IMG/VR virus record: IMGVR_UViG_3300048905_000128
Length of the DNA stretch: 64,000 nt
Reading direction: 5' to 3' (one strand)
Source: a virus
Shown here: piece by piece, positions 1,726 through 50,276 of the stretch
Layout of the letters: every line of letters begins with the position of its first letter
Numbering within the stretch: position 1 is the stretch's first letter
Translations under genes and position numbers: made by a program
The notes under the pieces: generated by a model
Seen by the model: only the letters and a program-made list of their open reading frames with translations
The model's database searches: none
What the model was told of the DNA's origin: nothing

Positions 1726-1798
1726 GACGGTCCTGCTCTCTGTGGGGTAGGGGTCGATCGCGCGGCGGGGTGACCGGCGGTCTATCGGGTCTATCTTG

Positions 1799-1836
1799 CC
1801 GGGCCGGTCCGACGTTTCAGAGCCGGACCGGCCCGG
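1799..1836 (-). terminator. GC-rich hairpin downstream of gene 1839..2024
   Basis: CCGGGCCGGTCCG (1799-1811) pairs with CGGACCGGCCCGG (1824-1836), giving a 13-bp perfect stem. Confidence 0.55.
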
Positions 1837-1838
1837 GA

Positions 1839-2024
1839 TCACGCCAAGGCGGTGACGTGGTGGGCGAGCCCGCCGAGGAGGGCCCAGATGAAGCGGATGC
1901 CGTCGACGCCCAGCTCGACCGGGTTGTATCCGGCGGTCACCAGGCCGACCAGCACGGCCATGCACAACGCGATGACGGCAAACGAGACGATCCGCGGGGC
2001 GGCGGGGGCGGTGGGCTTCGTCAT
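1839..2024 (-). CDS. small membrane protein (61 aa), possibly leaderless
   Basis: ATG 2024 (MTKPTAPAAPRIVSFAVIALCMAVLVGLV...) with two hydrophobic helices. The start lies 7 nt downstream of the TAGGGT -10-like hexamer and has no SD. Confidence 0.6.
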   Translation of the reverse strand: MTKPTAPAAPRIVSFAVIALCMAVLVGLVTAGYNPVELGVDGIRFIWALLGGLAHHVTALA

Positions 2025-2026
2025 GG

Positions 2027-2266
2027 CTATGACCCTACACCATCTCCGCCGTTTTTGACCCCAGAATCTTCGGGGTTGTGTTCGGGGTCCTCCACCCCCT
2101 CCAACCATTCGGCCGTCCGCACGAACCCCTCGAACAGATAGCTCAGCATCCGCAGGAACGTCGTACCGGCCAGCAGCAGCGGGAAACCCACCACACCGGC
2201 CCGCACCGTCCCCGGCGCGAGCACCACCTCATCCACCCACCGCCACACCCGCCCGCCCACGCTCAC
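2027..2266 (-). CDS. hypothetical membrane protein (79 aa)
   Basis: Track ORF. GTG 2266 overlaps the upstream stop (GTGA). One hydrophobic helix. The 3' end runs through the promoter repeat. Confidence 0.45.
   Translation of the reverse strand: MSVGGRVWRWVDEVVLAPGTVRAGVVGFPLLLAGTTFLRMLSYLFEGFVRTAEWLEGVEDPEHNPEDSGVKNGGDGVGS
2032..2067 (-). promoter_or_regulatory. repeated promoter/operator cassette, copy 1
   Basis: On the minus strand: ATTCTGGGGTCAAAAA, a 14-nt spacer, then TAGGGT. The architecture is the same as in 7 other copies. Confidence 0.6.
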
Positions 2267-3500: not shown

Positions 3501-3553
3501 GGTGCCCTCCTGGGCGGTTGGGGTAGGGGTCCGGCGGCCGGTGGAGCGACCGG

Positions 3554-4412: not shown

Positions 4413-4449
4413 CGTGTCCTCCGGGGTAGGGGTTCCGGCTACAGGTGTA

Positions 4450-4485
4450 ACCCTACACCACCGTTGCCATTTCTGACCCCACTAT
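4450..4485 (-). promoter_or_regulatory. repeated promoter/operator cassette, copy 2
   Basis: On the minus strand: ATAGTGGGGTCAGAAA, a 14-nt spacer, then TAGGGT. Confidence 0.6.
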
Positions 4486-5252: not shown

Positions 5253-5288
5253 GGTGACCTCCGGAGTAGGGGTTCGTGCTGTGGTTTC

Positions 5289-5324
5289 ACCATACACCAT
5301 ATCGCGAGTTTTTGACCCCACTAA
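5289..5324 (-). promoter_or_regulatory. repeated promoter/operator cassette, copy 3
   Basis: On the minus strand: TTAGTGGGGTCAAAAA, a 14-nt spacer, then TATGGT. Confidence 0.6.
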
Positions 5325-5937: not shown

Positions 5938-5972
5938 GGTCGCTCCTCGGGGGTAGTCGAGCGGGGACGTGA

Positions 5973-6255: not shown

Positions 6256-6293
6256 GGGGTGCTCCTGGGGTAGGGGTTCCGTTCGGTGTGGTT

Positions 6294-6614
6294 TCACCCT
6301 ACACCCTGGCCGTCGTTTCTGACCCCAGTAATTTGGAGGACGTGGGACACATCGGCCGCCGGGTCGCCCTCGGCGACCGGACTGGGCAGCACACGCGTCG
6401 GCGCCGACACCGCAGCCGGGGCCGCCGGACCCACCCCAGGGATCGACGGCAACGCCAGCCCGACCAGCCCGAAAGCGACCAGCAAGCCGACGAGCACGCC
6501 GCCGATCCACACGCGGATGTCGGGGTCGATGTCGGACCAGCGGCGGCGCCGCGGCCGCTCGACGGCCGGGGCGGGCGGCTCGATGCGAAGGAAGCGGGTG
6601 GTGGGCGTGTCCAT
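6294..6614 (-). CDS. membrane protein (106 aa)
   Basis: Track ORF with a transmembrane helix (VWIGGVLVGLLVAFGLVGLAL). CCCCTACCCC lies at 6635-6644 plus a GCAGGAG SD. Confidence 0.6.
   Translation of the reverse strand: MDTPTTRFLRIEPPAPAVERPRRRRWSDIDPDIRVWIGGVLVGLLVAFGLVGLALPSIPGVGPAAPAAVSAPTRVLPSPVAEGDPAADVSHVLQITGVRNDGQGVG
6296..6331 (-). promoter_or_regulatory. repeated promoter/operator cassette, copy 4
   Basis: On the minus strand: TTACTGGGGTCAGAAA, a 14-nt spacer, then TAGGGT. Confidence 0.6.
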
Positions 6615-6651
6615 CGTGGGCTCCTGCGGGGTGTGGGGTAGGGGTCGGGGC

Positions 6652-6682
6652 GGCCCGGCCGTCAGGGGTGGACGGCCGGGCC
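6652..6682 (-). terminator. GC hairpin after gene 6690..7454
   Basis: GGCCCGGCCGTC and GACGGCCGGGCC form a 12-bp perfect stem. Confidence 0.55.
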
Positions 6683-7454: not shown

Positions 7455-7494
7455 CGTCATCTCCGTGGGGTAGGGGTTCCTGCTGACATGGATA

Positions 7495-7530
7495 ACCCTA
7501 CACGCCTTCCACCGTTTTTGACCCCAGAAA
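7495..7530 (-). promoter_or_regulatory. repeated promoter/operator cassette, copy 5
   Basis: On the minus strand: TTTCTGGGGTCAAAAA, a 14-nt spacer, then TAGGGT. Confidence 0.6.
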
Positions 7531-7701: not shown

Positions 7702-7737
7702 TTTCTGGGGCCAGATATTCGGTTTTTGGTGTAGGGT
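7702..7737 (+). promoter_or_regulatory. repeated promoter/operator cassette, copy 6 (divergent from copy 5)
   Basis: TTTCTGGGGCCAGATA, a 14-nt spacer, then TAGGGT, upstream of gene 7776. Confidence 0.55.
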
Positions 7738-7775: not shown

Positions 7776-8042
7776 ATGGCAGACAAGCTGGGCGACAAGA
7801 TCATGTTGGCGGCGGCCGACCAGGGATGGACGGTCGTCGACCACGGGACCATGGTCCGGTTCGTCAGCAGCCAGGTGGCGGCGTCTTTCGACGTCCCCCA
7901 TGAGCTGCTGGACGACCCGGCGATGGAGCCGACCCTTCGGGGCACGGTGCTCCTGGACATGATCGTCGCGGGACACCTGCAGTGGCCTTGGCCGCCGGAC
8001 CACGTCGAGTGGATCCACGGTGAGACGCCGCTGATGGAGTGA
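7776..8042 (+). CDS. hypothetical protein (88 aa)
   Basis: Internal ATG 7776 (MADKLGDKIML...) of ORF 6885..8042 with a GGGAGGGAGG SD. Confidence 0.65.
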   Translation: MADKLGDKIMLAAADQGWTVVDHGTMVRFVSSQVAASFDVPHELLDDPAMEPTLRGTVLLDMIVAGHLQWPWPPDHVEWIHGETPLME

Positions 8043-12136: not shown

Positions 12137-12405
12137 AGCAGCCCCGCATGGCGGCGGGCGGCGACACGCTCCCGCAGGGCCCGGTTCTCCGCCTCGACGG
12201 CGCCCAGGCGGGCGCGGAGCTGGTCGAGCTGCTCGACGAGGGCCACGACGCCCGGGGTGTGCCCGTACCAGACGGTTGCGGCGGCCTCGGCGTCGTCGAG
12301 GCGGGGGCCGACCGCGTGGAGCACGTGCACCGTCCCGTCGGGGAACCGCTGCACAGCGGCCCCGAGGTCGGGGATCCACCCGAGGTCGGGGAGCTGGGCG
12401 GTCAC
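12133..12405 (-). CDS. hypothetical protein (90 aa), C-terminal coiled coil
   Basis: GTG 12405 (VTAQLPDLGWIPDL...) in GTGA overlap. Confidence 0.55.
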   Translation of the reverse strand: MTAQLPDLGWIPDLGAAVQRFPDGTVHVLHAVGPRLDDAEAAATVWYGHTPGVVALVEQLDQLRARLGAVEAENRALRERVAARRHAGLL

Positions 12406-12854
12406 GGGGTGGGGGTGATCGCGGAGGAGACGATGCGCTGGGCGGCGGTGCCCTGTGCGACGGTGCGCCGCTCGGCGGCCAGGGCCTCCCGGATCCGGTC
12501 GAGGGGGATCACGGTCGACTCGGCGTTGCGGTCCTCGAGCGCGTGACGGCCGGGCGCCGGGCGGGCCGGGACGGGGTGGAGCTGGGCGCTGTGAGAGAGC
12601 ACCGGGGCGGGCGGGGGCGGGGGCGGGCTGGTCGGCCGGGCGGGGGGCTGCGTCGCGGTCGACCGGCCTGCGACCGAAGGCCAGTCGAACTCCGCGGCGG
12701 TGATGGGCGGGCCCCAGGAGCGGGTCGGCTCCGGTTCGGGCTGGTCGAGGCCGAAGTCCCGCCACATGCGCTCGCGCTGCACGAGCCGGACGGTCAGGCC
12801 GGCGACGAGGCCGACCAGCAGGATCAGGGCGATCTCGACAGTGGTTTCGATCAT
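12402..12854 (-). CDS. membrane-anchored Pro-rich protein (150 aa)
   Basis: ATG 12854 (MIETTVEIALILLVGLVAGL...) with an N-terminal transmembrane helix. Confidence 0.6.
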   Translation of the reverse strand: MIETTVEIALILLVGLVAGLTVRLVQRERMWRDFGLDQPEPEPTRSWGPPITAAEFDWPSVAGRSTATQPPARPTSPPPPPPAPVLSHSAQLHPVPARPAPGRHALEDRNAESTVIPLDRIREALAAERRTVAQGTAAQRIVSSAITPTP

Positions 12855-12917
12855 CGGGGGTAGCACCCTTTCCGGGCGATGAAGTGCAGCGCGGCGGGGT
12901 TGTCCGCGCTGGTCGTG

Positions 12918-13220
12918 CTATCCGGCCGCGTCTCTGCGGCCCTTTCGGGTGCCGGCCTGCCCGCACCCGGGTTTGCGGGGGTCACTGCCGGGGATCCACC
13001 AGCAGCGGCAACGCCAGTTGTCGTAGCCGCCGATGGTGCCGTGCGGGCACTCTCGGTCGGTCTGCACCATCCGGCCGTCCGGCCCTCTGACGAGGGTGGT
13101 GTTCTTCGCGTCCCGCTCCTTCTGGCGCAGGTCCGCGAAGTGTGCTCGGCATCGGTAGTCCGGGCAGCCTTTGCGGGGATGCTTGAGGTGGTCGTGCGGC
13201 GGGATCGGCCGCCCGTTCAC
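12918..13220 (-). CDS. Cys/His-rich protein (99 aa)
   Basis: The only in-frame start after the SD region is GTG 13220 (VNGRPIPPHDHLKHPRKGCPDYRCRAHF...CPHGTIGGYDNWRCRCW). It is coupled by GTGA to a 21-codon uORF. Confidence 0.5.
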   Translation of the reverse strand: MNGRPIPPHDHLKHPRKGCPDYRCRAHFADLRQKERDAKNTTLVRGPDGRMVQTDRECPHGTIGGYDNWRCRCWWIPGSDPRKPGCGQAGTRKGRRDAAG

Positions 13221-13282
13221 GACAGCGAACGGGCGTTGTTCTCGCGTGGCGGGGCGCTGGCTGTTCGGGCTGGTCGTCTCAT
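13217..13282 (-). other. 21-codon upstream ORF (MRRPARTASAPPRENNARSLS)
   Basis: CCCCTACCCCCGGAG plus 9 nt precede ATG 13282. The stop TGA overlaps GTG 13220 of the main ORF. Confidence 0.35.
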
Positions 13283-13379
13283 GACGGTGGACTCCGGGGG
13301 TAGGGGTCGCAGGGTGCGTCCCGGGCGGGCTCTTTGGGGCGAAGAGCCTGTCCGGTACCCACACGATACCGCCGATTAT

Positions 13380-13701: not shown

Positions 13702-14886
13702 TTACACCACCAACGCCGCATCAGTTTCCGGGGTCGATAAACCCGGCTGCCCGTCCGGGATGAACTCCCGTGTCCGCCCCAGCCCCCGCCGCCTCGGCGC
13801 AGGCTTCGGCGCCGACTTGCGCGGCTGGTAGATCCGCCGCGCAGCCGCACGACCGGCCTCCGCGATCGGGGCGGGCTCCGTCTCGGCAGCGCGCCGGGCC
13901 TCCTCGGCCGCCTCCTCGGCGGCCGCCAGCTCAGCCACGACGACCCGATGCGGAGTCGTGTGGTCGCACGGCGTCCGCGGCGACAACAGGACCCCGGGAT
14001 GCCCAGGCTGGCACCGGTCGCCCACCGGGTTGCACATCTCGCACGCCGCCAGGACGGCCGCCGTTTCGCGGGTCTCAACGGCGACCGGGTCCGGGGCCGC
14101 CTCGTGGCGGACCCGCTGCTGCCGGTTGTGGTTCTTGACCCGCTGGCACTTCCAGCAGCCCGGCACGTCGAACTCGGGATCGGCCCGGATCGCCGCGAGG
14201 TGCTCGGCGCACGCCCACTCCGACTCGGGGTCCGTCCACTTCGACTTCGGCAGGGGTGGGGGGGCGTCCGGGACCGGCCCCGTCTCGGGCTGGCCGTCGA
14301 CGGTCTCAGCTGCCCCCCCGGTCCCCCTGATGGTTCCTAAATGGTTCAAGGGGTCCCGCTCCGGGACCCCTGCTACGTCCCGCTCCGGGACGGGGGTAGT
14401 CCCGGAGCGGGACCTTGCCGACACATGGTCCCGCTCCGGGACTATGTCGTCGACCTGGGGATCATCGTCGCATGGTCCCGCTGCGGGACTATGTTCGCCA
14501 CCTGGGGTTTCTTCGGCGTCTAGGGCGTCGTCGGTCGGGGTCGGGTCGTCCTCGAACAGGGCTTCGAGCTCGTCCATCTCCTCCTTCGAGACGACTCGCT
14601 TCCGCGCCTTGAGGGCCTCGATGTTGAGTCGGTAGGCGTTCGAGCGCCGCGACCCGTTCCGGCGACGGCGGGCCCGACGCTCGATCAGGCCGTCCTCGTT
14701 CTCCAGCTCCTTGAGGAGCCGGAACACAGTCGATCGCGGGATGCCCGACGACCCCATCAGGTGCTCAATGCCGGGCTTGCACAGCCCGACGACGTTCGCG
14801 TTGTTGGCGATGGCGATCAGCAGCATCCGCTTGTTGACCGGGCCGACGTCGGACTCGAGGACAGCGTTCAGGGCCGGGATGCTCAC
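13702..14886 (-). CDS. winged-helix DNA-binding protein, candidate replication initiator (394 aa)
   Basis: GTG 14886 (VSIPALNAVLESDVGPVNKRMLLIAIANNANVVGLCKPGIEHLMGSSGIPRSTVFRLLKELENEDGLIERR) is a wHTH. Five palindromic iterons lie inside the gene. It is coupled to a 22-codon uORF. Confidence 0.7.
   Translation of the reverse strand: MSIPALNAVLESDVGPVNKRMLLIAIANNANVVGLCKPGIEHLMGSSGIPRSTVFRLLKELENEDGLIERRARRRRNGSRRSNAYRLNIEALKARKRVVSKEEMDELEALFEDDPTPTDDALDAEETPGGEHSPAAGPCDDDPQVDDIVPERDHVSARSRSGTTPVPERDVAGVPERDPLNHLGTIRGTGGAAETVDGQPETGPVPDAPPPLPKSKWTDPESEWACAEHLAAIRADPEFDVPGCWKCQRVKNHNRQQRVRHEAAPDPVAVETRETAAVLAACEMCNPVGDRCQPGHPGVLLSPRTPCDHTTPHRVVVAELAAAEEAAEEARRAAETEPAPIAEAGRAAARRIYQPRKSAPKPAPRRRGLGRTREFIPDGQPGLSTPETDAALVV
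14353..14489. repeat. five copies of the 15-bp palindrome GTCCCG-N3-CGGGAC (iteron-like)
   Basis: Copies at 14353-14367, 14377-14391, 14399-14413, 14428-14442 and 14475-14489. Confidence 0.8.
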
Positions 14887-14951
14887 CAGACGACCCCCGC
14901 CCTCTTGAGCGCGGCCATCGAGCCGGGCGGTGGTTCGTGGGCAGGCGTCAT
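14883..14951 (-). other. 22-codon upstream ORF (MTPAHEPPPGSMAALKRAGVVW)
   Basis: CCCCTACCCCAGGGAGG plus 9 nt precede ATG 14951. The stop TGA overlaps GTG 14886 of the rep-like gene. Confidence 0.35.
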
Positions 14952-15027
14952 CGCGACGCACCTCCCTGGGGTAGGGGTCGATCGAGCGCGGTGGGGTTGA
15001 CCGGCTCGGGGGTAGGTGGGGTGAACA

Positions 15028-15844: not shown

Positions 15845-16039
15845 CGCAGCTCCTAGGGGTAGGGGTCGATGCGAGGCGGGCGGCATCGGCGAGCCGGTGC
15901 GGAGAGGGCCCCTCCGCGCCGGCTCGCCCCATGTCACCAGCCAGGCAGCTACCGGTCGGTACGGATACGGGTCTCGCGGAGCCGTCCGTCCGCCGTGTCA
16001 GTCGCGCCCCTACGTCCTCGCGCGCCGTTCCCCGACTCT

Positions 16040-16068
16040 GCCGCCCCGCTGGGGTCATGCGGGGCGGC
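16040..16068. terminator. GC hairpin
   Basis: GCCGCCCCGC and GCGGGGCGGC form a 10-bp perfect stem. Confidence 0.45.
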
Positions 16069-16342
16069 ACGCCAGAGGCGGAGGTTCTCAGCCGCGCCAC
16101 GCCGTGAGTAGCGTCCGTCACACCCTTGTGTGGAGTGCGGCGGACGGGGGTACCACCCCGGAGTCCGCAGATTTCGACCTCAAACATTTGAATCATCCCG
16201 CATCCGTTCGGCGTTACCGTCGTTGCGGAATCAGGACCTATGGCGTGCGCCATATACAGATTCACCGCACAACGGAATTTGAAGGGCAAATACGGCATCT
16301 CGGCCGCACTTGTGTTGTTGCTTACGCAAACAACGTGGCGGA

Positions 16343-16561
16343 TCAGCTCGTCAGCTGATATCCGCTCGCCACTCCCCCGCCGTTCGGGCCGACAGCCCGC
16401 AACACGCGGATCAGCCCCGCCCGTTCCAGCTCGCGCGTCGCACGCTGTGCAGTGCGGGACGACGTCCCGATCACCCGCGCCAGCTCGGCCACCGTCAGCG
16501 ACCGAGCCCCCTGCGCGCACACGACCCGCAGATGCGACAGCAGACGATCCCTCGCGGACAT
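16343..16561 (-). CDS. small winged-HTH regulator (72 aa; possible extension to 16666)
   Basis: ATG 16561 (MSARDRLLSHLRVVCAQGARSLTVAELARVIGTSSRTAQRATRELERAGLIRVL). Confidence 0.55.
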   Translation of the reverse strand: MSARDRLLSHLRVVCAQGARSLTVAELARVIGTSSRTAQRATRELERAGLIRVLRAVGPNGGGVASGYQLTS

Positions 16562-16822
16562 GCTCGACGATTCCGGCGCGCCTGCTTGAGGACGCGCATC
16601 ACCCACAGCTAGGGTCATCCCTAGACCAACTCTCTCGGTCACCTCTTCCCCTCGGGCGCCAACCATCGGGGTAGAGGTCTGCCCGCTCGTCGGGCATGGG
16701 CGAACCGTATCCCCGATTACATCCACAGCCGGGCAGGCTCGGTCAGCCCGGCGTGTCACCCCCCGACGGTCGGAACAATCGGGGACACCACTCGGCGCGG
16801 CGGCCCTCGACAGCCGCCCCAG

Positions 16823-17237: not shown

Positions 17238-17267
17238 TTGACCCCCCTTATATGGGGGGCGTATCGT
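17238..17267 (+). promoter_or_regulatory. candidate sigma70-type promoter (TTGACC, 18 nt, TATCGT)
   Basis: -35 at 17238-17243 and -10 at 17262-17267. In-frame GTGs at 17269 and 17275 suggest a leaderless or near-leaderless mRNA. Confidence 0.4.
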
Positions 17268-17268: not shown

Positions 17269-18000
17269 GTGGGCGTGAACACCCCTACCCCAGGTGTTCA
17301 GCAGGTCACCCCGCCTGCTGACGCCGCGCCGTTCGTCGGCGCCCTCGTTCCCGTCCCGACCGCTGGCGCGCTGCCCGGTCTCCCCTCCCCCGCCGAGACC
17401 CGGCGCCTGCTCAAGGAGGGTGTGAACGCGGCCGTCGGCCGTGTCCGCGCCCAGCGGGTCGCCCAGAAGCCCGGCGACTACTTCCCGCTGATCCTCGACC
17501 TCACCGCGCTGCGGGAGCTGCTCGGCGAGTACGTCGACGCATTCAAGGCGATCATGGCGATCCTGCTGCAGGTGATCGAGGAGGAGCACCTCGAGGCCGC
17601 GGGCGAGCAAGACGGCATTCCGAACACCGGTCTCGACGTCCCCGACAGCGACGGAACCGTCGTGAAGGTCCGCGCCAAGACGTCGAACAAGCACGTCATC
17701 GACCCCGATCAGGTCCTCGGGCCCATCGCCGCACTCGTCATGGAGCGGTGGGTGATGCGCACCGTCCGCGAACCCGACACGGCCCTGATCGCCGCCGAGG
17801 CCCCCGAGGAGTACGCGATCGAGGTCGCCCGCGAGGCCCTCGCGATGATGGGCTCCGCGAAGATGCAGACGTCGCGGCTCAAGGAGCTGCGGCTCACCCT
17901 CGGCCAGATGGGACTGCACCAGCTCGCCGACGTGGTCAAGGACGCCGAGACCACCACCCGCAAGTTCGAGGGCACCACCGTGGAGCGCAAGACCGCCTGA
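17269..18000 (+). CDS. hypothetical protein (243 aa)
   Basis: Track ORF directly upstream of recT. The start may be GTG 17275. Confidence 0.65.
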   Translation: MGVNTPTPGVQQVTPPADAAPFVGALVPVPTAGALPGLPSPAETRRLLKEGVNAAVGRVRAQRVAQKPGDYFPLILDLTALRELLGEYVDAFKAIMAILLQVIEEEHLEAAGEQDGIPNTGLDVPDSDGTVVKVRAKTSNKHVIDPDQVLGPIAALVMERWVMRTVREPDTALIAAEAPEEYAIEVAREALAMMGSAKMQTSRLKELRLTLGQMGLHQLADVVKDAETTTRKFEGTTVERKTA

Positions 18001-18097
18001 CCGCGGGGTCCGTACCCCTGGGCCCGCGCCGCTGTACCCCGCAACGCCTTGACGCCGCGACCTACCCCGCGCGGCTCCTACCCCGGAAGGCACCGCC

Positions 18098-19980: not shown

Positions 19981-20016
19981 GGCCCGGCCGCCGACCTACC
20001 CCTCGGCGGCCGGGCC
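19981..20016 (+). terminator. 14-bp-stem hairpin with CCTACCCC in the loop
   Basis: GGCCCGGCCGCCGA, loop cctacccc, TCGGCGGCCGGGCC. Confidence 0.55.
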
Positions 20017-20046
20017 CGACCCCTACCCCACAACCGGAGCCCAGCC

Positions 20047-22890: not shown

Positions 22891-22938
22891 AAGCACCCTA
22901 GACGGGTTGTCTACCCCTACCCCGACCGGAGCGCCGCC

Positions 22939-23440: not shown

Positions 23441-23476
23441 TTTCTGGGGTCAAAAACGGTCGGTGTGGTGTATGGT
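23441..23476 (+). promoter_or_regulatory. repeated promoter/operator cassette, copy 8
   Basis: TTTCTGGGGTCAAAAA, a 14-nt spacer, then TATGGT, followed by GACCCCTACCCCAGGAGatcgacATG. Confidence 0.6.
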
Positions 23477-23515
23477 GAAACCAAGCAACCGAGACCCCTA
23501 CCCCAGGAGATCGAC

Positions 23516-24202: not shown

Positions 24203-24273
24203 TCCCCGGGCCCGGCCGCACACCCCGGCGGCCGGGCCCGTCACGACCCCTACCCCACGCAAGGAGGGCCACC

Positions 24274-29907: not shown

Positions 29908-29930
29908 GCAGGTGGGGTAGGGGTCGCAGG

Positions 29931-31987: not shown

Positions 31988-32163
31988 GGCGCACCCGGAC
32001 CGCCGGATGCGAGAGCACCGGGCCTCGTCGTCGATCCCGCTCGGTCACGGGTTAAATCCCGCACGGGACGACACGTATTCGACCCCGGAATAGGTGACGG
32101 GTGTTCTGCGGTCTCTCCCCGTACTCTGCGAGGGCCCTACCCGTGCCCCGGAAGGTTCTCGCC

Positions 32164-34411: not shown

Positions 34412-34509
34412 CGCCCGTCCTCGTCGTCTACCGGTAACGACGATTCCACGTCACAACGATGTTGGTTGTGGGAGCACCACCCGACCCCTACCCCCGAGAG
34501 AGGCCCCTC

Positions 34510-36138: not shown

Positions 36139-39100
36139 TCAGATGGTGGTGATCGGTGTCGCGGCCCGGTAGAGGCCGCGGGCGTACGGGCGTCCGGCCC
36201 GGGGGAGACCGGTCGCGTAGGGCTGGCCTGCGCGCAGAGCACCGACCGGGCCCGGGCCGACCCCGAACGGGGCCGCCGAATCCCGCGCGGCCGCCACATC
36301 GGTAGCGGTCCGTGTGACCGCGTGGATCCGGGTGGCCGTGTCGAGGGCTGCGGCCTGGTCGACGACCGCCCGACCCCGCTGCGACGGGGCCCTCACCGCG
36401 ACATCGGTTGCGGCCGCGACATCCGCGGCGGTAAAGGCCCTCGTCGAGGTGGGCCCCGCCTGGTCGGCTGCGGGGGCCGCATCGGAGGCGGTGCGGGACA
36501 CCACCAGGTGACGGAGCACCGTGTCCGCTGCCGTCGCGGCATCGGCGATCAGCCGCGACAGCGACACCGCGGCCGTGGTGACATCGGAGGCCGGTGCGAC
36601 ATCCGATGCAAACCGGGGGAGCCCCGCCGGTACGAACACGCTGTCGAATGCCGGGGCCGAATCCTGGGCGGTCCGCGACCGTGACAGCGGGCTGCGGGTG
36701 GCGGCCGGTGTCGCCGAGGCCGAGTCGGTGACGTCGCGGCTGGTCGAGAGGTTCGCCCGGGTGGCGACGTCGACCGCTACGGCGACGTCCTGCGCCGTGT
36801 GTTGGAGCTGCACGGCCCGGCCCGCGACGTCGAGCGCCGGGGCCGAATCGGCGCTGCCCCGGGTGGGGGACAGCGCAGCCCGGGACGCCACGTCGACTGC
36901 AGCTGCGACATCCACGGCGGTGCGGCCGACACCGTCCGGGGCTCGGGTCGCCCCGTCGAGCGCCGCCGCGGTGTCGGCGACGGTCCGCCCGATCGAGGCG
37001 GCCGCCGTCGCCGCATCGACCGCGGCGGCCTGGTCGTCGGCGGTCCGGGCCCCGAGCTCGGGGGGGCGCCCGGCCTGATCCGTTGCCGCCGCGGTGTCGG
37101 CGGCCTGCCGGTCGACGGTGACCTGCCCGGCCGCGGTGTCGACGGCCGGGGCGTGGTCGACGACGAACTGGCCGCCCGCCGCTGACGTCCCCGCCGTGTC
37201 CACGGCGGGCGCCGAGTCGGCGGCCGACCGGGATCTCGTCGTTGCTGCTCGTCCCGCCGAGTCCACGGCCGGGGCGGAGTCGCCTGCCTGGCGGGATGCC
37301 ACCGTGCTCCGGGCCGCGCTGTCTGTCGCTGGCGCGGTGTCGGTGACGGTGCGGGACAGCCGGACAGCCGGTGTAGCACCGTCGACCGCAGGGGCGGTGT
37401 CCGTGGTGCTCCGTAGCGGCGACATCGTGGCCCGTGCCGCGACGTCGACGGCCGCCGCGACATCGGATGCTGTCGTAGCGCCGCCGAGCTGGTCGGCCGC
37501 CGAGTCCACGGCCGGGGCGGAGTCTGTCGCAGTGCGGGACCATGTCGCGCCACCCCGGTTTGCGACATCGGTCGCAGCCGCGGTGTCACCGGCCGTGCGG
37601 GCGGCCGAGAACGGGGCCCGGCCCGCCGAGTCGGTCGCGGCGGCGGTGTCCGTTGCGACCCGGGCGGGGGTCAGAGCAGACCGGGTGGCCGAGTCGGTCG
37701 CGGCCGCGGTGTCCCCGCCGGTTCGGGAGAAGATCGAGCCTGCACGGGCGGCGGTATCCGTCGCCGGCGCGAGGTCACCACCGGTGCGGCTGACCGCCAG
37801 TGCCGTCCGGCTGGCTGTGTCGGTAGCCGCGGCGGTGTCGGCGGCCGTCCTAGACCACGTGTCCGCCGAGCGTGTGGCGCTGTCGGTCGCCGCAGCGGTG
37901 TCGGCCCCGGTCCGGGTGACGAGCAGGGCCGCCCGGGTGGCCGTGTCGGCGGCTGGGGCCGTGTCGGTCGCGGTCCGGGCCCGGGTGATCGTCGAGCGGG
38001 TCGCGGTGTCCGCCGCCGGGGCCGAGTCGGTCGCGCCGATCGTGCTGGCCTGGGCGCCCCGCACCACCGCGTCGCCGGCCGGGGCCGAGTCCGATGCGGT
38101 GCGGATGGACGAGGTGGCCGCCCGTGAGGCCGCATCGGTGGCGGCCGCCGAGTCGACGGGGGAGCGGCCCGCCGTGGTCGTGCGGGCTACGGAGTCCGTC
38201 GCGGCCGCCGTGTCGGCGCCCGACCGGGACTTGAGTACCGCTCCGTGGGTAGCGGAGTCGCTGGCCGGGGCCGAGTCCGACGCGGTCGCCAAATGCGACC
38301 CCGACGTGCCGAGCAGCGCGTTCGTGACGAGGCCGCCGATGATGGCGTGTCCGGCGTCGGTCGGGTGATAGTCCGACGTCCAGTCGGTGGTTCCGGGGCC
38401 GCCGGTGCCGGACATCCACGTCTCGGCGTCGATGACCAGCAGGTTTCCGTCGGTTGCCGCGTAGCTCCTGATGGCGGCGGCGTACGCCGCCCACGTCGGG
38501 CTGGCCGTCGCGGCGGTCGGGGACACGTTGTGCGCGATGAACAGGGCGATCGACGGCACCTTCGTGAGGGCGCGCGCCCATCCGACCAGGGTGGTCAGGT
38601 AGCCGATGTACGCGGCCGTCGTGGTGTTCGCCGACCAGTCGTTGAGCCCCAGCTCGATGAGCACGAGGTCGGGGCTGAGGGCATCCCACGTGGCCGGGAG
38701 CGTGTTCGACCCGACCGCGTCGAAGCCGCTCGCATACTGCTGGGCGGTGATGCCGACGCGGGCCCCGTCGTAGAGCGTGATCCCGCTGGTGGCGTCGCCG
38801 TCGAAGACGACGAGGCCGCCGACGTACGCGTTCTGCGCTGCGTTCGTGGCGACCTGCACGGTGTGGGACCCGGAGGCGCCGAGGGTGATGGTCGTCGGCG
38901 TCCAGGTGGGCGCACCGCCGTTGTCGGCGGTCACGGTGACCGGGGAGCCGCCGTCGACGGAGTAGGTGAACTGGGAGGCGCCGCTGTAGGCGCCGTACCA
39001 GAGCTGCGCCGAGGTGCCGGTGACCGTCCACGTGAGGGTGGCGGTGGTGCCCAGTAGTCGAGTGTTGAAGCCGAACGGTCCGGACCAGAAGTCCGTATTG

Positions 39101-39564
39101 CTGCTGCCAGTTTCGGCGATCCCGGTTGTGCCCCAAGGGGAATCGGGGCCATACACCTGGTACTTCGCCGGGATGGCGCCGACGCCGCCCGCGGCCAGGC
39201 CCAGCCGTGCCCGGATCGCCGCGACCGTGAGGCTCGCCCACCGGTTGGCCCGGACGGACGCCCCCTGCCCTTCCCCGACGGAGTCGCCGATGACAAGCAG
39301 CCGGGCCCGACCCGTCCCTACCTGGGCCGCCGAGAGCGCCGTGTTCCATGCGGTCAGCGGTCCACTGGCGGGCACAGCCCGGTCGCCCGCTGTGTCCGTC
39401 GCCCCGGCCGTGTCCGCGGCCGACCGGGCACGGGTCGCCACACTGCGGGTCGCGGTGTCGGTGGCCGGGGCCGAATCCGAGGCGGACAGATTCGCCTGGA
39501 CCTGCGAGGCCACCACGGGCGCGGCCCGCAGGCGGCGGGGGATGCTGCGGCCGAGGATCGCCAC
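36139..39564 (-). CDS. 1141-aa minor tail-like protein: SGNH/GDSL hydrolase domain plus about 32 tandem 21-aa repeats
   Basis: GDS block LLVIGDSVGEGQG, GLNDW block and DYHPTDAGH (DxxH) block. From about aa 427 to 1105 the protein is a run of units such as RTGADTAAATDSATRSADTWS. Confidence 0.8.
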   Translation of the reverse strand: MAILGRSIPRRLRAAPVVASQVQANLSASDSAPATDTATRSVATRARSAADTAGATDTAGDRAVPASGPLTAWNTALSAAQVGTGRARLLVIGDSVGEGQGASVRANRWASLTVAAIRARLGLAAGGVGAIPAKYQVYGPDSPWGTTGIAETGSSNTDFWSGPFGFNTRLLGTTATLTWTVTGTSAQLWYGAYSGASQFTYSVDGGSPVTVTADNGGAPTWTPTTITLGASGSHTVQVATNAAQNAYVGGLVVFDGDATSGITLYDGARVGITAQQYASGFDAVGSNTLPATWDALSPDLVLIELGLNDWSANTTTAAYIGYLTTLVGWARALTKVPSIALFIAHNVSPTAATASPTWAAYAAAIRSYAATDGNLLVIDAETWMSGTGGPGTTDWTSDYHPTDAGHAIIGGLVTNALLGTSGSHLATASDSAPASDSATHGAVLKSRSGADTAAATDSVARTTTAGRSPVDSAAATDAASRAATSSIRTASDSAPAGDAVVRGAQASTIGATDSAPAADTATRSTITRARTATDTAPAADTATRAALLVTRTGADTAAATDSATRSADTWSRTAADTAAATDTASRTALAVSRTGGDLAPATDTAARAGSIFSRTGGDTAAATDSATRSALTPARVATDTAAATDSAGRAPFSAARTAGDTAAATDVANRGGATWSRTATDSAPAVDSAADQLGGATTASDVAAAVDVAARATMSPLRSTTDTAPAVDGATPAVRLSRTVTDTAPATDSAARSTVASRQAGDSAPAVDSAGRAATTRSRSAADSAPAVDTAGTSAAGGQFVVDHAPAVDTAAGQVTVDRQAADTAAATDQAGRPPELGARTADDQAAAVDAATAAASIGRTVADTAAALDGATRAPDGVGRTAVDVAAAVDVASRAALSPTRGSADSAPALDVAGRAVQLQHTAQDVAVAVDVATRANLSTSRDVTDSASATPAATRSPLSRSRTAQDSAPAFDSVFVPAGLPRFASDVAPASDVTTAAVSLSRLIADAATAADTVLRHLVVSRTASDAAPAADQAGPTSTRAFTAADVAAATDVAVRAPSQRGRAVVDQAAALDTATRIHAVTRTATDVAAARDSAAPFGVGPGPVGALRAGQPYATGLPRAGRPYARGLYRAATPITTI
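36250..38286 (-). repeat. in-frame degenerate 63-bp (21-aa) tandem repeat array
   Basis: Consensus R-T-x-x-D-T/S-A-A/P-A-x-D-x-A-x-R-x5; two further units at the N-terminus (aa 27-62). Confidence 0.8.
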
Positions 39565-46822: not shown

Positions 46823-46833
46823 CGGCTCACCTC

Positions 46834-49584
46834 CTAGAAGATCGGGACGGTGGTCTGGCCCAACACGCCGCGCGTCGGGTCTTCGAGCACCCACGCCGAG
46901 TCGACGAACACGGGGGAGAGCTGCAGGTCCACGGTCCACTCCGACGTGTCGGCGACCACCTTGATTTCGATCTTCTCGACGTAGTAGTCGTGAGAGAACG
47001 ACAAGGCGGGGGAGCGGCGGAACACCCTCACCCGTTGCTGCAGCTCGAGGCCGAGCACGACCGGCCACAGCGACGGGTTCGCCGCCGGACGCAGCGTCAG
47101 CTTGGTGATCCGGGTACGTGGCGCCCCATAGCGGGCGAGGTAGAAGATGCCCGCCTGCTCGACGTCGAAGTCGGTGTTGACCTGCAGCTCTTGGGTGAGG
47201 ATCCGTTGCCCGTAGCGGTCCTGAGCGGCCTGGTCCACCATCGGGGCGATGTTGCTGTTGTCCGGCCTGGTCAGGTTCGCCTGCGTGAACACGTACGTGG
47301 GGTCGTGGTCGGTCGAGTAGTCCGAGTAGGGCAGCTCCGACTCGTCGTTGTCGGGGTCCTCCCCGAACACGGCCACCGGCTCCTGGTCGAGGTAGCGGTA
47401 ATCGCGGTCGGGCCACTGGACGGCGCCCGCCACGTCGGCGAACAGCACCGCCCGTTCGGTCTCGCCGATCTCCTGTAGGACGTCGAGCATCGTCCGGGTG
47501 TCATAGGAGAAATCCGGGGCCATTCGGGCGTAGCCGCCCATGTAGCCGCGCGGCCCCTTCCAGTACTTGTCGAGCAGCCGCGCCACCCGGGCACCGGACC
47601 GCTCGCCCTTGTACCCGATGCCGCGCTGGTAGTGCGCGAGCCGCCGCGCCGTCATGTCGGCGATCGACCACGCATAGTTGTAGACGGCCCACCTGCTGAC
47701 GGACCCCTGGGCCTGCGGCTCCCCGAACTGGCTGCTCGCCTCGTGGTACAGGGTGTTGAACCCGAGGAAGCGGGGGTAGCCGCCCGCGGAACCGCCCGGG
47801 GTGATCGAGAGATAGCCGAGGGCGTCCCCGTCCATCGCGACATACCAGCGGGCGCCGACGACGGCCTGCCACATGTAGTGCCACTCGCCGTCGTCGAACG
47901 TCTCGAAGCTCAACGAGTCCGCGAGCCCGTATGAGGCGCCCGACCCGGCGATCCCGGTCCGGAGCGCGAACCGCAGCTGCCCGCCGTAGCCGAGCGCGGC
48001 GACGGTGGGCACATTCCAGTTGAGGCCGTGCGGATCTGCGACGTCGAGGAGTTCGAGGGTGCCGAACTGGATGGTGCCCGCGTTGTAGCGCACCCACAGC
48101 TCCCACATGAACCCGCCTGCGGTGTCCAGTGAGACGAACCCGCCCTGCACGGTCATCTCGGTGGAGCCGCCGGTCGAGGGGAACACGGCGGGGGCGTCCT
48201 TGCTCTCGCCCCTGGCTGGGTCGCCGCCTGGGTTCTGGTTGGCGAACGTCACGGCGGGGGTGCCGTCGGGTGCGGCGTCCGACCCCCAGTTGATCGACCC
48301 GCCGTCGGGGATCACCCACCGAGTGAAGCCGTTGGGGCCCTTGCCCAGCTCGGCACCGGTGTTCGGGCTGACCTGGTTGCTCATCGGGTGGTACAGCATG
48401 GGGGTGTCGGCGGCGATCTCGGCGTCGTAGCTTTGCGCGATCGCGGTCCGGGAGAGGATCGCGAGGGCGTCGACGGCCTGTAGCGGTCGCTGTGCCCGCG
48501 TGCCGGACATGTCGTAGTTGGTGGGCCAGCGTTCGACGTAGCCGGTGAACTGCGGGTAGAGCACGGGGCCGGTGAGCGTGGCGTCGCTCAGGGACGGCCC
48601 GAACTCCAACTGGTAGTCATCCACGTAGAATGTCGGATTCGCGACGCCTGCACCGAAGATGATGATCTGTTCGGCGGTGTCGACCGTCTGCCAGTTGAAG
48701 AAGATCCGCGTCCACACGTTCTGTGCAGCCGCAACCGCCGACTGCGTCGTGTCCCCGCCCGCATCGACGACCTGCGCCATCACCGTGCACCCACCCGTCG
48801 GGCGCACCCACACCGACCACGTGTAGTCGAGCGCGGGCACCGTCGGCGGCACGATCGCCACCCCATGCCCCGCGCCCGCCGCCGCCTGCACCACCTTGAG
48901 CGACGACGAACCCGAGTGGTGCTGCTCGGTCACCACCGTCCGCGTCGTCGCCTCATCGAGCACCACCCACGGCGCCGCCGGATCCGCCGAACCCGCAGCC
49001 TCGAAGTCGGGCCGGTAGTCGACCCCGAGCGTCGGGTTGAAGATGTTCCCGCTGCCCGGCTGATTCGGCCACATCCCCCACACCCGAACCGCCCGGTACG
49101 CGGTGACCGCGTTGTCCCCGACGTTGTACGGCGAGGACGGGCTGTCCGGGTTCAGCATCTCCAGCGGGTCCGGCACGTCGATCTCACACGTCCCGGCCTG
49201 GACCTGGTCCAGCTCGTACTGACGTCCGCGCGACGTCGACCACGACCGCACCACCAGGCGCCGCCCAACCCGGTTGAGGGACTGCCGGGCCGCCCCCGGC
49301 ACACCGGGCGGCCCCTGGGTGAAGTCCACGTCGAACCCCACGACAGGCCAGTTCGGGTTCGGCAGCGTCGCCACCGGCGGGGCGGCGAGCTTGAGCGCCC
49401 CCGCAACATCGGTGGCCCCGGCGACGTCCTGCACGGTGCGGGACTGCGCAGGCATCCGCCACGACACCGAGTCCACGGCGGGCGCCGAATCGAACGCCAG
49501 CCCAGGAGTGACCGGCGCCGCCAGCACCCCCGGCGACACCCCGCGTGCCGGCCGGGCGGAGTAGCTCCGACCGATGCGAGCCAT
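46834..49584 (-). CDS. large minor tail protein (916 aa) with CBM4_9-like carbohydrate-binding module
   Basis: Track ORF. The block ...SLKVVQAAAGAGHGVAI...WTRIFFNW...ANPTFYVDDYQLEF is typical of CBM_4_9. Confidence 0.8.
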   Translation of the reverse strand: MARIGRSYSARPARGVSPGVLAAPVTPGLAFDSAPAVDSVSWRMPAQSRTVQDVAGATDVAGALKLAAPPVATLPNPNWPVVGFDVDFTQGPPGVPGAARQSLNRVGRRLVVRSWSTSRGRQYELDQVQAGTCEIDVPDPLEMLNPDSPSSPYNVGDNAVTAYRAVRVWGMWPNQPGSGNIFNPTLGVDYRPDFEAAGSADPAAPWVVLDEATTRTVVTEQHHSGSSSLKVVQAAAGAGHGVAIVPPTVPALDYTWSVWVRPTGGCTVMAQVVDAGGDTTQSAVAAAQNVWTRIFFNWQTVDTAEQIIIFGAGVANPTFYVDDYQLEFGPSLSDATLTGPVLYPQFTGYVERWPTNYDMSGTRAQRPLQAVDALAILSRTAIAQSYDAEIAADTPMLYHPMSNQVSPNTGAELGKGPNGFTRWVIPDGGSINWGSDAAPDGTPAVTFANQNPGGDPARGESKDAPAVFPSTGGSTEMTVQGGFVSLDTAGGFMWELWVRYNAGTIQFGTLELLDVADPHGLNWNVPTVAALGYGGQLRFALRTGIAGSGASYGLADSLSFETFDDGEWHYMWQAVVGARWYVAMDGDALGYLSITPGGSAGGYPRFLGFNTLYHEASSQFGEPQAQGSVSRWAVYNYAWSIADMTARRLAHYQRGIGYKGERSGARVARLLDKYWKGPRGYMGGYARMAPDFSYDTRTMLDVLQEIGETERAVLFADVAGAVQWPDRDYRYLDQEPVAVFGEDPDNDESELPYSDYSTDHDPTYVFTQANLTRPDNSNIAPMVDQAAQDRYGQRILTQELQVNTDFDVEQAGIFYLARYGAPRTRITKLTLRPAANPSLWPVVLGLELQQRVRVFRRSPALSFSHDYYVEKIEIKVVADTSEWTVDLQLSPVFVDSAWVLEDPTRGVLGQTTVPIF

Positions 49585-49607
49585 GAGCTACCCCCGTCCC
49601 GGGTCGA

Positions 49608-50234
49608 TCAGTTGGTGACGGAGTGCGTGATCGTCAGCTGATCCCCGGACGCGTTGATCGTCGCCGCCGCGCTCAGCGTCGTGTGGAACAGCGGAGCACC
49701 ACCCTGGGCGCGCTGAAAGATCCCGTCCGAGTACACGGTGACCGGCAGACCCGAGTCGGAGCCGTTCGCCGTGAACGTCGCGGTCAGCGTGTAGCCCGCC
49801 GCCGACGTCGTGTGCGTGTACCCGGCGGCCTTGCGGTAGAGCCCGCCCGCGGTGGTCGCGTACTCCGAGCCGAGCGCGGTGTCGCCCGCCGCCGGGGCGG
49901 TGTTGCTCGTGTCCAGGCCCATGAAGTAGGCGGCGGCCTGGCCCGGCAGCACGACGAACCCCGGCGTGCCGGTGGGGATCGACCCGGCCGTGGTGCCGCC
50001 CGGGGTCGACGGGTTGTACCACTTGTCCACGGTCAGGACGCTGGTCGTGTGGCTGACGATGTAGCCGTAGACGCCCCCGACCGCGACGATGTGGCCGACG
50101 AGCGCCGGGCTCGCCGGGAACGGGGTGCCCGTCGCCGTGATCGTCGTCGAGGTCGCCGACGACATGGTCGCGGTGACCTGCGTCGGGTCGCCCATCTGAC
50201 CGGCCTGCTGGTCGTTGCCTGCGTTGGTCTTCAC
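49608..50234 (-). CDS. minor tail protein (208 aa)
   Basis: Track ORF. Two CCCCTACCCC copies plus GGGAG lie upstream of GTG 50234. Confidence 0.7.
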   Translation of the reverse strand: MKTNAGNDQQAGQMGDPTQVTATMSSATSTTITATGTPFPASPALVGHIVAVGGVYGYIVSHTTSVLTVDKWYNPSTPGGTTAGSIPTGTPGFVVLPGQAAAYFMGLDTSNTAPAAGDTALGSEYATTAGGLYRKAAGYTHTTSAAGYTLTATFTANGSDSGLPVTVYSDGIFQRAQGGAPLFHTTLSAAATINASGDQLTITHSVTN

Positions 50235-50250
50235 TTCGAGGTGCTCCCGT

Positions 50251-50276
50251 GGGGTAGGGGTCGACAGGGGTAGGGG
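50251..50276 (-). repeat. tandem double copy of the CCCCTACCCC leader motif
   Basis: GGGGTAGGGG at 50251-50260 and 50267-50276; the only copies in the late operon. Confidence 0.7.

Follow-up and report, generated by a model that had tools for sequence, protein, structure and literature searches.

The question raised by the viral sequence analyzed here (IMG/VR record IMGVR_UViG_3300048905_000128; the whole stretch of 64,000 nt is referred to as the window) is what a short sequence that recurs in front of many of its genes does, and in which form it is read. The 10-mer CCCCTACCCC, which an initial annotation had reported to occur 18 times in exact form, was found 18 times on the two strands when recounted, more often than any other 10-mer in the window. 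In dinucleotide-preserving shuffles, the control that the same annotation had proposed, the 10-mer occurred 0.15 times on average and at most twice, and 0/100 shuffles reached 18 copies; when up to one mismatch was allowed, 33 copies were observed as compared to 7.8 expected. We tentatively favor, without giving it the greater part of the probability, an explanation in which the motif is an element of messenger RNA (mRNA) leaders that would be read in single-stranded form by a factor, probably encoded by the phage, that co-regulates early genes.

Genes were called from the GC content at codon positions (GC frame), and the gene starts used throughout are our own calls. With these independent calls, all 18 exact copies were intergenic and in the sense orientation relative to the downstream gene, in agreement with the association initially described, and no copy was antisense; the non-coding fraction of the window is 10.5%. 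The orientation of the copies reverses at each of the four changes in gene direction. The bases flanking the 10-mer are also conserved, with A at position -1 in 18/18 copies, G at -2 in 13/18 and A at +10 in 12/18, and the element is a 13-mer with sharp edges, i.e., GA-CCCC-TA-CCCC-a. This 13-mer is a direct repeat of two tandem ACCCC units with a period of 6 nt; no partner element at a fixed distance was conserved across the 18 copies. Shorter cores showed the same bias in the window, as 25/33 occurrences of CTACCCC and 22/24 occurrences of CCTACCCC were intergenic and sense (none of the latter being antisense). The pentamer ACCCC was found 54 times on the sense strand of early leaders as compared to 12.6 expected, a 4-fold enrichment, while its complement (8 observed, 4.0 expected) showed no comparable enrichment.

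The coordinates initially given for these copies were exact except for two that were off by one (34486 and 18076, which correspond to 34485 and 18075). The accompanying set of one-mismatch variants was partly accurate: the copies at 5263, 16668 and 18075 differ from the 10-mer by one base, while those at 5950 (CGACTACCCC) and 19993 (GACCTACCCC) differ by two, as does the variant placed at "32137", which is the copy at 32134-32143 (GCCCTACCCG); all three retain the core CTACCCC. Additional intergenic one-mismatch copies that were absent from that set were also observed (e.g., at 15009).

The position of the motif relative to the start codon was far from uniform. In 15/17 leaders the motif ended 10 to 20 nt 5' of the start, as compared to 2.6 leaders expected if the motif is placed uniformly within each gap (0/200,000 simulations reached 15). 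A separate Shine-Dalgarno (SD) sequence (GGAG, AGGAG or GGAGG) begins 0 to 9 nt 3' of the motif in 14 leaders, consistent with the SD-adjacent placement noted initially, and abuts the motif at 4423, 6267 and 23495. The spacing between SD and start codon in the motif leaders is 5 to 9 nt, and the upstream gaps of these leaders range from 38 to 498 nt. On the minus strand, the 13-mer GACCCCTACCCCA is found at 1743..1755 (18 nt 5' of ATG 1725), 3519..3531 (19 nt 5' of ATG 3500) and 6634..6646 (20 nt 5' of ATG 6614), and the 13-mer GACCCCTACCCCT, followed by AGGAG, is found at 15855..15867 (11 nt 5' of ATG 15844). Two further minus-strand copies precede short upstream open reading frames (uORFs), i.e., GACCCCTACCCCC with GGAG at 13296..13308 (14 nt 5' of ATG 13282, which begins a 21-aa uORF sharing a GTGA overlap with GTG 13220) and GACCCCTACCCCA with GGGAGG at 14967..14979 (16 nt 5' of ATG 14951, which begins a 22-aa uORF overlapping GTG 14886 of a replication-initiator-like gene). 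The latter copy shares its leader with the one-mismatch copy CACCTACCCC at 15009..15018 (minus strand), and another one-mismatch copy, CCTCTACCCC at 16668..16677 (minus strand), lies at the upstream edge of an open reading frame (ORF) encoding a MarR-like protein with a winged helix-turn-helix (wHTH) domain. Among plus-strand copies, GACCCCTACCCCA occurs at 20018..20030 (17 nt 5' of ATG 20047, the start of whiB) and at 24245..24257 (17 nt 5' of GTG 24274), GACCCCTACCCCC occurs at 34483..34495 (15 nt 5' of GTG 34510), and the two-mismatch copy GCCCTACCCG at 32134..32143 precedes GGAAGG and GTG 32164.

Two exceptions to the SD-adjacent placement had been pointed out initially, and both hold. The copy GACCCCTACCCCA at 29913..29925 (minus strand) lies 7 nt past the upstream stop codon, is followed by a 13-bp hairpin, and is located 71 nt 5' of its SD-bearing start (ATG 29842), and the copy at 17282 falls inside the database-called ORF 17269-18000. 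For the latter, GC frame moves the true start downstream of the copy, to 17422, and the copy lies in a hairpin loop 130 nt before that start. As for the two uORFs (13220-13282 and 14886-14951, minus strand), each consists of 21-22 codons with its own motif, SD and ATG and a GTGA overlap with the GTG of the main gene, which suggests translational coupling via putative leader peptides.

The window (72% G+C) encodes a tailed-phage gene set, comprising a minus-strand late operon that runs from approx. 64000 down to 35205 (capsid, tail tube, tape measure, carbohydrate-binding module and GDSL proteins, amidase) and divergent early blocks at 1-35000 (RecT-like, WhiB, SNF2 helicase, replication-initiator-like, ParA and FtsK-like proteins and several helix-turn-helix (HTH) proteins); most early proteins had no family match in Pfam or PHROGs. 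Exact copies were early in 17/18 cases, and the late operon carries the motif at one locus in 29 kb, where two tandem 13-mers with a period of 16 (50250..50278, minus strand) come immediately after the upstream stop codon, with 16 and 32 nt between them and GTG 50234. The motif core was present in 17/35 early leaders as compared to 1/11 late leaders (P = 0.03; Fisher's exact test). Since late leaders are mostly free of the motif despite having gaps and strong SDs, the motif marks a gene class, i.e., early genes, and is not a general translation signal. Start codons differed as well, with ATG used by 12/15 genes with the motif as compared to 28/75 genes without it (P = 0.004). Sequence past the window start, available from a variant of this phage, holds four further exact copies and one one-mismatch copy, in front of other early genes, all sense and 7 to 14 nt from the called starts, and no copy was found in 10 kb with packaging and queuosine genes past the window end.

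Streptomyces or a related actinomycete is the host candidate suggested by composition, by the WhiB and HTH_31+DUF5753 proteins and by the best RecT homologues. A location just 5' of the SD is where the 30S subunit contacts mRNA, and a translational enhancer or standby site for the host ribosome, in which the tract would be read by protein S1 or would pair with ribosomal RNA (rRNA), would fit this location as well as the association with ATG starts and independent initiation regions. Streptomyces 16S and 23S rRNA do contain segments complementary to part of the motif (GGUAGGGG and GGGUAGGGG, respectively). However, equally long rRNA complements were found for permuted motifs in 24% (16S) and 13% (23S) of trials, and the stretch that can pair with rRNA is the 5' part of the motif, while the conserved core is the 3' CUACCCC. 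Pairing with host rRNA, which had been proposed initially as a check, thus did not hold up, the 8-9-nt matches being within chance and in the wrong half of the motif; the 16S segment GGUAGGGG, moreover, is part of an internal helix, where it is base-paired. The motif is missing from late genes, which are presumably translated most heavily, 693 kb of chromosomal DNA from Streptomyces did not contain the 10-mer, and phages of similar GC content that share the SNF2 gene do not carry it. We consider a role as a ribosomal enhancer very improbable.

The relation of the motif to promoters was also investigated. Six copies (five exact copies and the one-mismatch copy at 5263) follow a repeated promoter-like cassette, GGGGTCArAAA-N10-GGTGTA(G/T)GGT, and a seventh promoter-linked copy, at 17282, follows the promoter TTGACC-17-TATCGT. 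The cassette-linked copies are located at 4422..4434 (minus strand; 13-mer AACCCCTACCCCG, touching GGAGG, 10 nt 5' of ATG 4412), 5263..5272 (minus; CCCCTACTCC, 10 nt 5' of ATG 5252), 6266..6278 (minus; 13-mer AACCCCTACCCCA, touching AGGAG, 11 nt 5' of ATG 6255), 7466..7478 (minus; 13-mer AACCCCTACCCCA, 12 nt 5' of ATG 7454), 22912..22924 (plus; 13-mer TACCCCTACCCCG, reading CTACCCC-TACCCC, 15 nt 5' of ATG 22939) and 23493..23505 (plus; 13-mer GACCCCTACCCCA, touching AGGAG, 11 nt 5' of ATG 23516). In 7/7 promoter-linked cases the motif lies 14 to 25 nt downstream of the -10 element and is therefore transcribed, and no copy in the window overlaps a -35 or a -10. The distance to the start codon in the six cassette-linked leaders stays at 10 to 15 nt, as compared to 130 nt at 17282. 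Three other copies follow a strong GC-rich stem-loop, and the remaining copies not linked to promoters are found in plain gaps; the independence of the motif from the repeated promoter, as proposed initially, is thus borne out, only six copies following the cassette.

The cassette itself, in the longer form aaaTTnnTGGGGTCArAAA-N10-GGTGTA(G/T)GGT, is present in eight copies, five on the minus strand (2032-2062, 4450-4480, 5289-5319, 6296-6326 and 7495-7525) and three on the plus strand (7707-7737, 22858-22888 and 23446-23476), and the -10 region of the cassette is similar to the motif read in reverse complement. The copy 5' of gene 7776-8042 is not accompanied by the motif. The copy 5' of gene 1839-2024 ends 7 nt from the ATG, and the mRNA of this gene is therefore probably leaderless.

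A 13-mer that is sense, intergenic, 5' of genes and class-specific could itself be a phage-specific promoter or initiator of middle genes, read by a phage sigma factor or RNA polymerase (cf. the T4 late element TATAAATA and T7-type promoters). Such a promoter would account for the order of terminator and motif, as three copies come directly after strong terminator-like hairpins, and it has a parallel in Microbacterium Cluster EC phages, which carry an 18-bp motif 22-30 bp before starts and encode a sigma factor. If the motif acted as a -10-type element, however, the transcription start site would fall inside or past the SD, and there is no -35-like partner. Six copies are located just 3' of a sigma-70-type promoter, and neither the two copies 16 nt apart at 50250-50278 nor the repeat units displayed in hairpin loops (described below) would be explained. 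Neither a sigma factor nor an RNA polymerase was found in the approx. 84 kb examined, the whole genome being 20-50 kb longer. Overall, a phage-specific promoter appears improbable.

A second DNA-level explanation is that the copies are stoperator-like sites, i.e., asymmetric 13-bp sites at which a phage repressor blocks RNA polymerase at many places along the genome (cf. L5 gp71 and R4-like phages). The length of 13 bp, the asymmetry, the approx. 20-25 copies and the single orientation relative to transcription all fit the description of stoperators, and the several HTH proteins together with ParA indicate that the phage may be temperate, like the parABS-carrying Cluster A phages. The promoter-linked copies, at approx. 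+8 to +28 from the transcription start site, are placed where a bound protein could block the polymerase. On the other hand, stoperators span both genome arms, while the 29-kb late operon has one site here; no copy lies on a -35 or a -10; a roadblock would not require placement against the SD in gaps of 70-430 nt; and a direct repeat with a 6-bp period is unusual for a dimer binding duplex DNA. Moreover, a separate 18-bp palindrome (17242-17259) looks like a classical operator, and none of the HTH proteins could be assigned to the sites as a cognate repressor. We regard stoperator-like sites as unlikely, and return to them below where the hairpin loops and a related phage bear on them.

The palindrome (CCCCCCTTATATGGGGGG) is perfect, is located between the -35 and -10 of the TTGACC-17-TATCGT promoter (17238-17267), and adjoins a MarR-like gene of the winged-helix type that runs divergently on the minus strand (16343-16561 or 16343-16666). 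The MarR-like gene and the palindrome are likely a classical repressor-operator pair, which is only partly conserved in the close relative L033 (see below).

To assess conservation, partial loci of one close relative (L033) and two looser relatives (L286 and L288) were compared with the window. L033, a 5.7-kb contig with six syntenic genes encoding proteins of 38-61% amino acid identity, retains the motif or its core in 4/4 homologous leaders, adjoining the SD, with flanks that are diverged or rearranged; conservation of the core in related phages, another check put forward initially, was thus observed. The four conserved sites are located after the divergent-region promoter, before RecT, before whiB and after SNF2 (where the site reads CCCCTACCCCtgccAGGAGcacacgATG). 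This bears on stoperators: their motifs drift with the repressor, whereas the motif described here is the same in L033 even though the proteins have diverged by 40-60%. The looser relative L288 (104 kb) has four genes in common with the window. Relatives identified by their capsid proteins (46-77% identity) covered structural regions only and were uninformative for an early-gene motif. The seven contigs that share SNF2 only (L024, L153, L154, L158, L284, L285 and L287) did not carry the motif. A scan of viral contigs for GACCCCTACCCC-N0-12-GGAG yielded at least approx. 119 stretches; among the matches listed, all were singletons or doublets on unrelated contigs, and on this basis the motif is not widespread in viral contigs.

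Other repeats were observed in these contigs. L154, a 110-kb contig with SNF2 only in common, has a motif of its own, GAACnGTTTCC, with seven copies at up to one mismatch (312, 3005, 6190, 8357, 18127, 18701 and 18898) as compared to 0.26 expected, most of them in the order stop, motif, SD and start and 12 to 19 nt from the start. L288 (374, 743, 3922, 5737, 12038 and 20513) and L286 (59 and 3597) contain six and two copies, respectively, of a highly conserved, SD-containing initiation region, GAGGAGCACCCGATG, which is of the start-associated sequence (SAS) type and occurs alongside hairpins with the loop ACCACCCC; a similar counterpart, AGGAGCACCCCATG, is present in the window at 6255. A hairpin-type intergenic repeat of approx. 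45 nt, GGCGCTTCCGACTCCGCTGCGCGGAGCCGGCCGGAAGCGCC, was found in the SNF2-bearing contigs L158 (2345, 4845, 8311, 12807 and 13031) and L153 (290, 1628 and 2642).

The sharp edges of the motif and its survival in L033 also bear on explanations that involve no sequence-specific RNA function, i.e., duplication of a cassette, an FtsK-orienting polar sequence (KOPS)-like signal, a G-quadruplex or i-motif, or a recombination linker. Two subsets of copies do share longer cassettes (the repeated promoter and a hairpin with GGGCCCGGCCG), as neutral duplication would produce, but conservation ends sharply at the edges of the 13-mer in all 18 copies and the core persists in L033 amid diverged or rearranged flanks. 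The complement of the motif, GGGTAGGG, fits the KOPS consensus GGGNAGGG, and positions 26956-28767 encode a protein of the FtsK/SpoIIIE type that has a wHTH at its C terminus; KOPS, however, are frequent in coding and non-coding DNA alike and oriented by the direction of replication towards a terminus, while the copies here are intergenic in 18/18 cases, SD-proximal, and flip with gene direction. Four G4 runs are present at the tandem site only, and the sole mosaic breakpoint available does not coincide with a motif. Even taken together, these explanations are highly improbable.

A further observation, which extends the initial description of the motif, concerns hairpins. All stem-loops adjoining the motif display ACCCC in a loop of 7 to 9 nt, the loops in the window being CCUACCCC, CACCCCU, ACACCCCG, CCUACCCCA and UCACCCCG, and those in L033 being ACUACCCC, CCACCCCA and CUACCCC. 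A sense ACCCC loop was found in 7 of the approx. 17 early intergenic hairpins of the window, as compared to 0/5 late hairpins and no antisense case; in control DNA, 1-2% of hairpins had an ACCCC loop (5/278 in Streptomyces, and 3/123, 1/64 and 0/41 in the other sets). When 11 ACCCC-loop hairpins were aligned, the only invariant columns were those of ACCCC. The hairpin upstream of whiB was found in each of four related phages, where its stems are unrelated but its loops alike, i.e., GGCCCGGCCGCCGA with loop CCUACCCC in the window, UCGGCG with loop ACUACCCC in L033, and GCGAGCA and GCCGCA, both with loop ACCACCCC, in L286 and L288, respectively. In L288 the identical loop ACCACCCC is carried by five hairpins with five different stems, all sense, and among six hairpins from relatives 5/6 stem pairs had changed on both sides. 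The loop consensus differs between the relatives (CUACCCC as compared to ACCACCCC). The recognized unit thus appears to be ACCCC, presented in hairpin loops as well as in the linear motif.

On the plus strand of the window, the hairpin upstream of whiB (19981..20016) has a 14-bp stem and the loop CCUACCCC, and a 13-bp stem-loop with the loop ACACCCCG at 24207..24240 is located 5' of the copy at 24245. The exact core at 17282 lies in the loop CCUACCCCA of an 8-bp stem-loop (17276..17300) directly 3' of the promoter; this stem-loop is kept in L033 and is followed in the same leader by a second stem-loop at 17298..17321 with the loop UCACCCCG. In the RecT leader (18054..18084), a short hairpin with the loop ACCUACCCC precedes the linear CTCCTACCCC and GGAAGG, 13 nt 5' of ATG 18098, and the core is kept in L033. 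On the minus strand, a 12-bp stem-loop with the loop CACCCCU (6652..6682) is located 5 nt 5' of the copy at 6634, and an 8-bp stem-loop with the loop ACAACCCCG (12887..12911) is found in the leader of gene 12402-12866. A degenerate copy, TCGACTACCCC (5945..5963), forms a short hairpin with the loop ACUACCCC, the 3' arm of which overlaps the SD, 12 nt 5' of ATG 5937. An 11-bp stem-loop with the loop AUGACCCCA (16039..16069) lies 3' of the MarR-like gene.

The presence of ACCCC in loops on unrelated stems is left unexplained by stoperator-like sites. The order of hairpin, unpaired motif and SD at operon junctions is that of a typical intercistronic processing site, and an endoribonuclease of host or phage origin that cuts the single-stranded C-rich tract 3' of the hairpin would produce an upstream mRNA protected by the hairpin and, downstream, an mRNA whose leader is short and defined. 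Mycobacterial RNase E preferentially cleaves 5' of cytidines, which would agree with such a site. The copies just past promoters, which have no upstream cistron, and the copies inside hairpin loops fit less well, however, and an exact 13-nt sequence is far more specific than the known preferences of RNase E. A role in RNA processing or stability is in our judgment improbable, to about the same degree as a phage-specific promoter.

We return to the mRNA leader element read by a probably phage-encoded factor. We favor an RNA element read in single-stranded form because the copies are found only in the sense orientation, are always transcribed, are tied to the SD, are built as a 6-nt repeat, recur as loops on unrelated stems, and are confined to early genes; a phage-encoded factor is favored because relatives have different loop consensus sequences and host DNA lacks the motif. 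The element would act in cis in the leaders of early and middle mRNAs, with the sense-strand ACCCC as its unit. This unit would be presented in two ways, either as two tandem units (GACCCCUACCCCA) located 0 to 9 nt 5' of the SD or singly, within the loop (7 to 9 nt) of a GC-rich stem-loop a short distance upstream. These units would be bound by a sequence-specific factor, for which a single-stranded-RNA-binding protein of the phage is the likeliest candidate, and, because they adjoin the ribosome-binding site, the bound factor would control access of the 30S subunit, and possibly mRNA stability, for approx. 25 transcription or translation units at once. Recognition of RNA rather than DNA, the phage origin of the factor and the direction of its effect (repression or activation) are all what we infer from the sequence.

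Several observations weigh against this explanation. Pfam and PHROGs searches with approx. 60 proteins found no KH, S1, CSD, Hfq, CsrA or RegA-like domain among the early proteins of the window, and precomputed Pfam labels showed no RNA-binding domain in the 10 kb on either side of the window. A DNA roadblock that depends on orientation would likewise give sense-only sites, and the hairpins could be plain intrinsic terminators with C-rich loops. The hairpins were picked for perfect stems, which biases covariation counts upward. In addition, accessibility of the motif in predicted folds equaled that of permuted C-rich controls (0.63 in both), and a 20-nt covariance model trained on the relatives ranked the window hairpins among its top matches only at a non-significant E value of approx. 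0.3; matches of this model in coding regions scored equally, 20 nt holding too little information. Predicted folds showed no consistent pairing between motif and SD that would sequester the latter. As a separate candidate, a complementary RNA encoded by the phage was rejected, as GGGGTAG occurs in one copy in sense transcripts.

To our knowledge, Actinobacteria lack Hfq and CsrA. A wider claim, that a phage protein reads single-stranded ACCCC and switches approx. 25 early mRNAs on or off, with a specificity that drifts between relatives (CUACCCC as compared to ACCACCCC), and that this represents a new post-transcriptional regulon of Actinobacteria phages, is possible but doubtful. If the motif is confirmed as an RNA element of this kind, it would show how a large (at least 100 kb), uncultured phage of high GC content co-regulates its early genes, and the motif could possibly serve as a portable regulatory tag for Streptomyces-type hosts. 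As the motif is separate from the SD, mutations can be made in it that leave the ribosome-binding site intact. That four related phages show this pentamer in loops whose stems are unrelated points to recognition of single-stranded RNA and provides a bait for pull-down experiments. If the motif were instead a DNA site, the stoperator concept would be extended to a new phage lineage.

With regard to the phage itself, its genome was also found on metagenome contigs of up to 132 kb, in which portal, terminase and queuosine-type genes are located past the window end. Among 50,697 phage records, megablast of 20 kb found no DNA match to a cultured relative, and tblastn of two proteins gave a best capsid match of 26-30% identity; the lineage is represented in metagenomes only. 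Two contigs of the phage, L159 and L161, are 99.98% identical up to position 10699, which is 17 nt past the window start, and unrelated beyond, representing either a mosaic variant or an assembly join. The FtsK/SpoIIIE-type ATPase mentioned above (26956-28767) is encoded on the minus strand and a ParA-type ATPase on the plus strand (32988-33893), and their presence in a phage of at least 100 kb suggests plasmid-like maintenance or DNA transfer, as far as the predicted functions go. Genes for QueC, QueD (PTPS), QueE (radical SAM) and GTP cyclohydrolase I adjoin the terminase and portal genes (L162, 538-2940, past the window end), and L288 encodes DpdA (838-1683); the queuosine-type genes probably reflect putative 7-deazaguanine modifications of the phage DNA. 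Finally, a minus-strand ORF of 1141 aa (36139-39564) with a GDSL lipase/acylhydrolase domain has atypical GC content at codon positions 1 and 2 and a low score with the frame-based caller; it may encode a Gly-rich tail or host-surface enzyme.

Comparison with known systems was made at the levels of both RNA and DNA. T4 RegA and CsrA/RsmA act on many mRNAs that carry a short single-stranded motif at or near the ribosome-binding site, such that a class of genes is controlled together, and in CsrA targets a hairpin loop often holds one copy while a second adjoins or covers the SD. The likeness to the motif described here is one of logic alone; the motifs are unrelated (GGA for CsrA, AU-rich for RegA), and no homologous protein was found here. 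The lambda-type nut site combines a linear boxA with a boxB hairpin that has a specific loop, and the 6C small RNA (sRNA) of actinobacteria has C-rich loops. Both share features with the window, i.e., a linear element accompanied by a hairpin of which the loop, and not the stem, is conserved, and C-rich loops that are functional in Actinobacteria. A nut site, however, occurs once per operon and not before approx. 25 genes, and 6C is a trans-acting sRNA. A scan of the window with Rfam 15 gave no relevant match (no 6C), the two sub-threshold matches elsewhere in the window being attributable to chance.

Among DNA sites, the stoperators of Cluster A (L5 gp71) and of R4-like Streptomyces phages (PMC6550527, PMC10276819) are also 13-bp, asymmetric and intergenic, with 20-30 copies in one orientation. 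They occupy both genome arms, with one site on the early lytic promoter and a motif that co-varies with the repressor. The motif in the window differs in that the late arm is almost empty, no promoter is overlapped, placement is tied to the SD, and the unit occurs in hairpin loops.

From 2011 onward, start-proximal repeats have been listed for a number of actinobacteriophage clusters (SAS, extended SAS (ESAS), and the repeats of Clusters EC and EG). The repeats of Microbacterium Clusters EC (18 bp, 22-30 bp before starts) and EG (14-21 bp before starts) (PMC7302621) resemble the motif in being intergenic, at a fairly fixed distance from starts and off the ribosome-binding site, in having approx. 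10-12 copies, and in being kept among relatives that share little other sequence. Their sequences are different, the EG repeats being short inverted motifs and the EC repeats 18 bp long, and no hairpin-loop form has been described for them; in addition, EC phages encode a sigma factor, while none was found in the approx. 84 kb here.

The initial annotation had proposed that the motif behaves like the SAS of Cluster K mycobacteriophages while differing in sequence. The placement and the difference in sequence hold, but the motif is not an SAS in the strict sense, since it does not include an SD and is located 5' of a separate one. In Cluster K, the SAS takes the place of the ribosome-binding site, with the SD core (GGGATAGGAGCCC) as part of it and the start 3-7 bp away (Pope et al. 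2011, PMC3203893), whereas the motif in the window is free of G, lacks an SD, ends 10-20 nt from the start and is followed by a separate SD. The remaining likenesses to SAS and ESAS (Cluster K, PMC3203893; Cluster EF Microbacterium phages, PMC7302621) are considerable, i.e., a 13-nt asymmetric repeat in 11-19 or more copies with one orientation, restriction to the non-structural part of the genome, larger upstream gaps, a preference for ATG, conservation in diverged relatives in front of different genes, and a subset of sites with an inverted repeat just upstream. For ESAS, approx. half of the sites have a 17-bp imperfect inverted repeat that is conserved in sequence and the differences in which do not support RNA pairing, while the stems in the window are perfect but unrelated and the loop (ACCCC) is the conserved part. 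The motif shows no sequence similarity to SAS or ESAS, and, consistent with the initial statement that no description of it was known, no phage paper was present among the full-text matches listed for CCCCTACCCC (20 of 202) and Rfam gave no match. Overall, as judged from its sequence and placement, the motif resembles the SAS/ESAS kind of actinophage repeats and differs from them in sequence, in position and in its hairpin-loop form.

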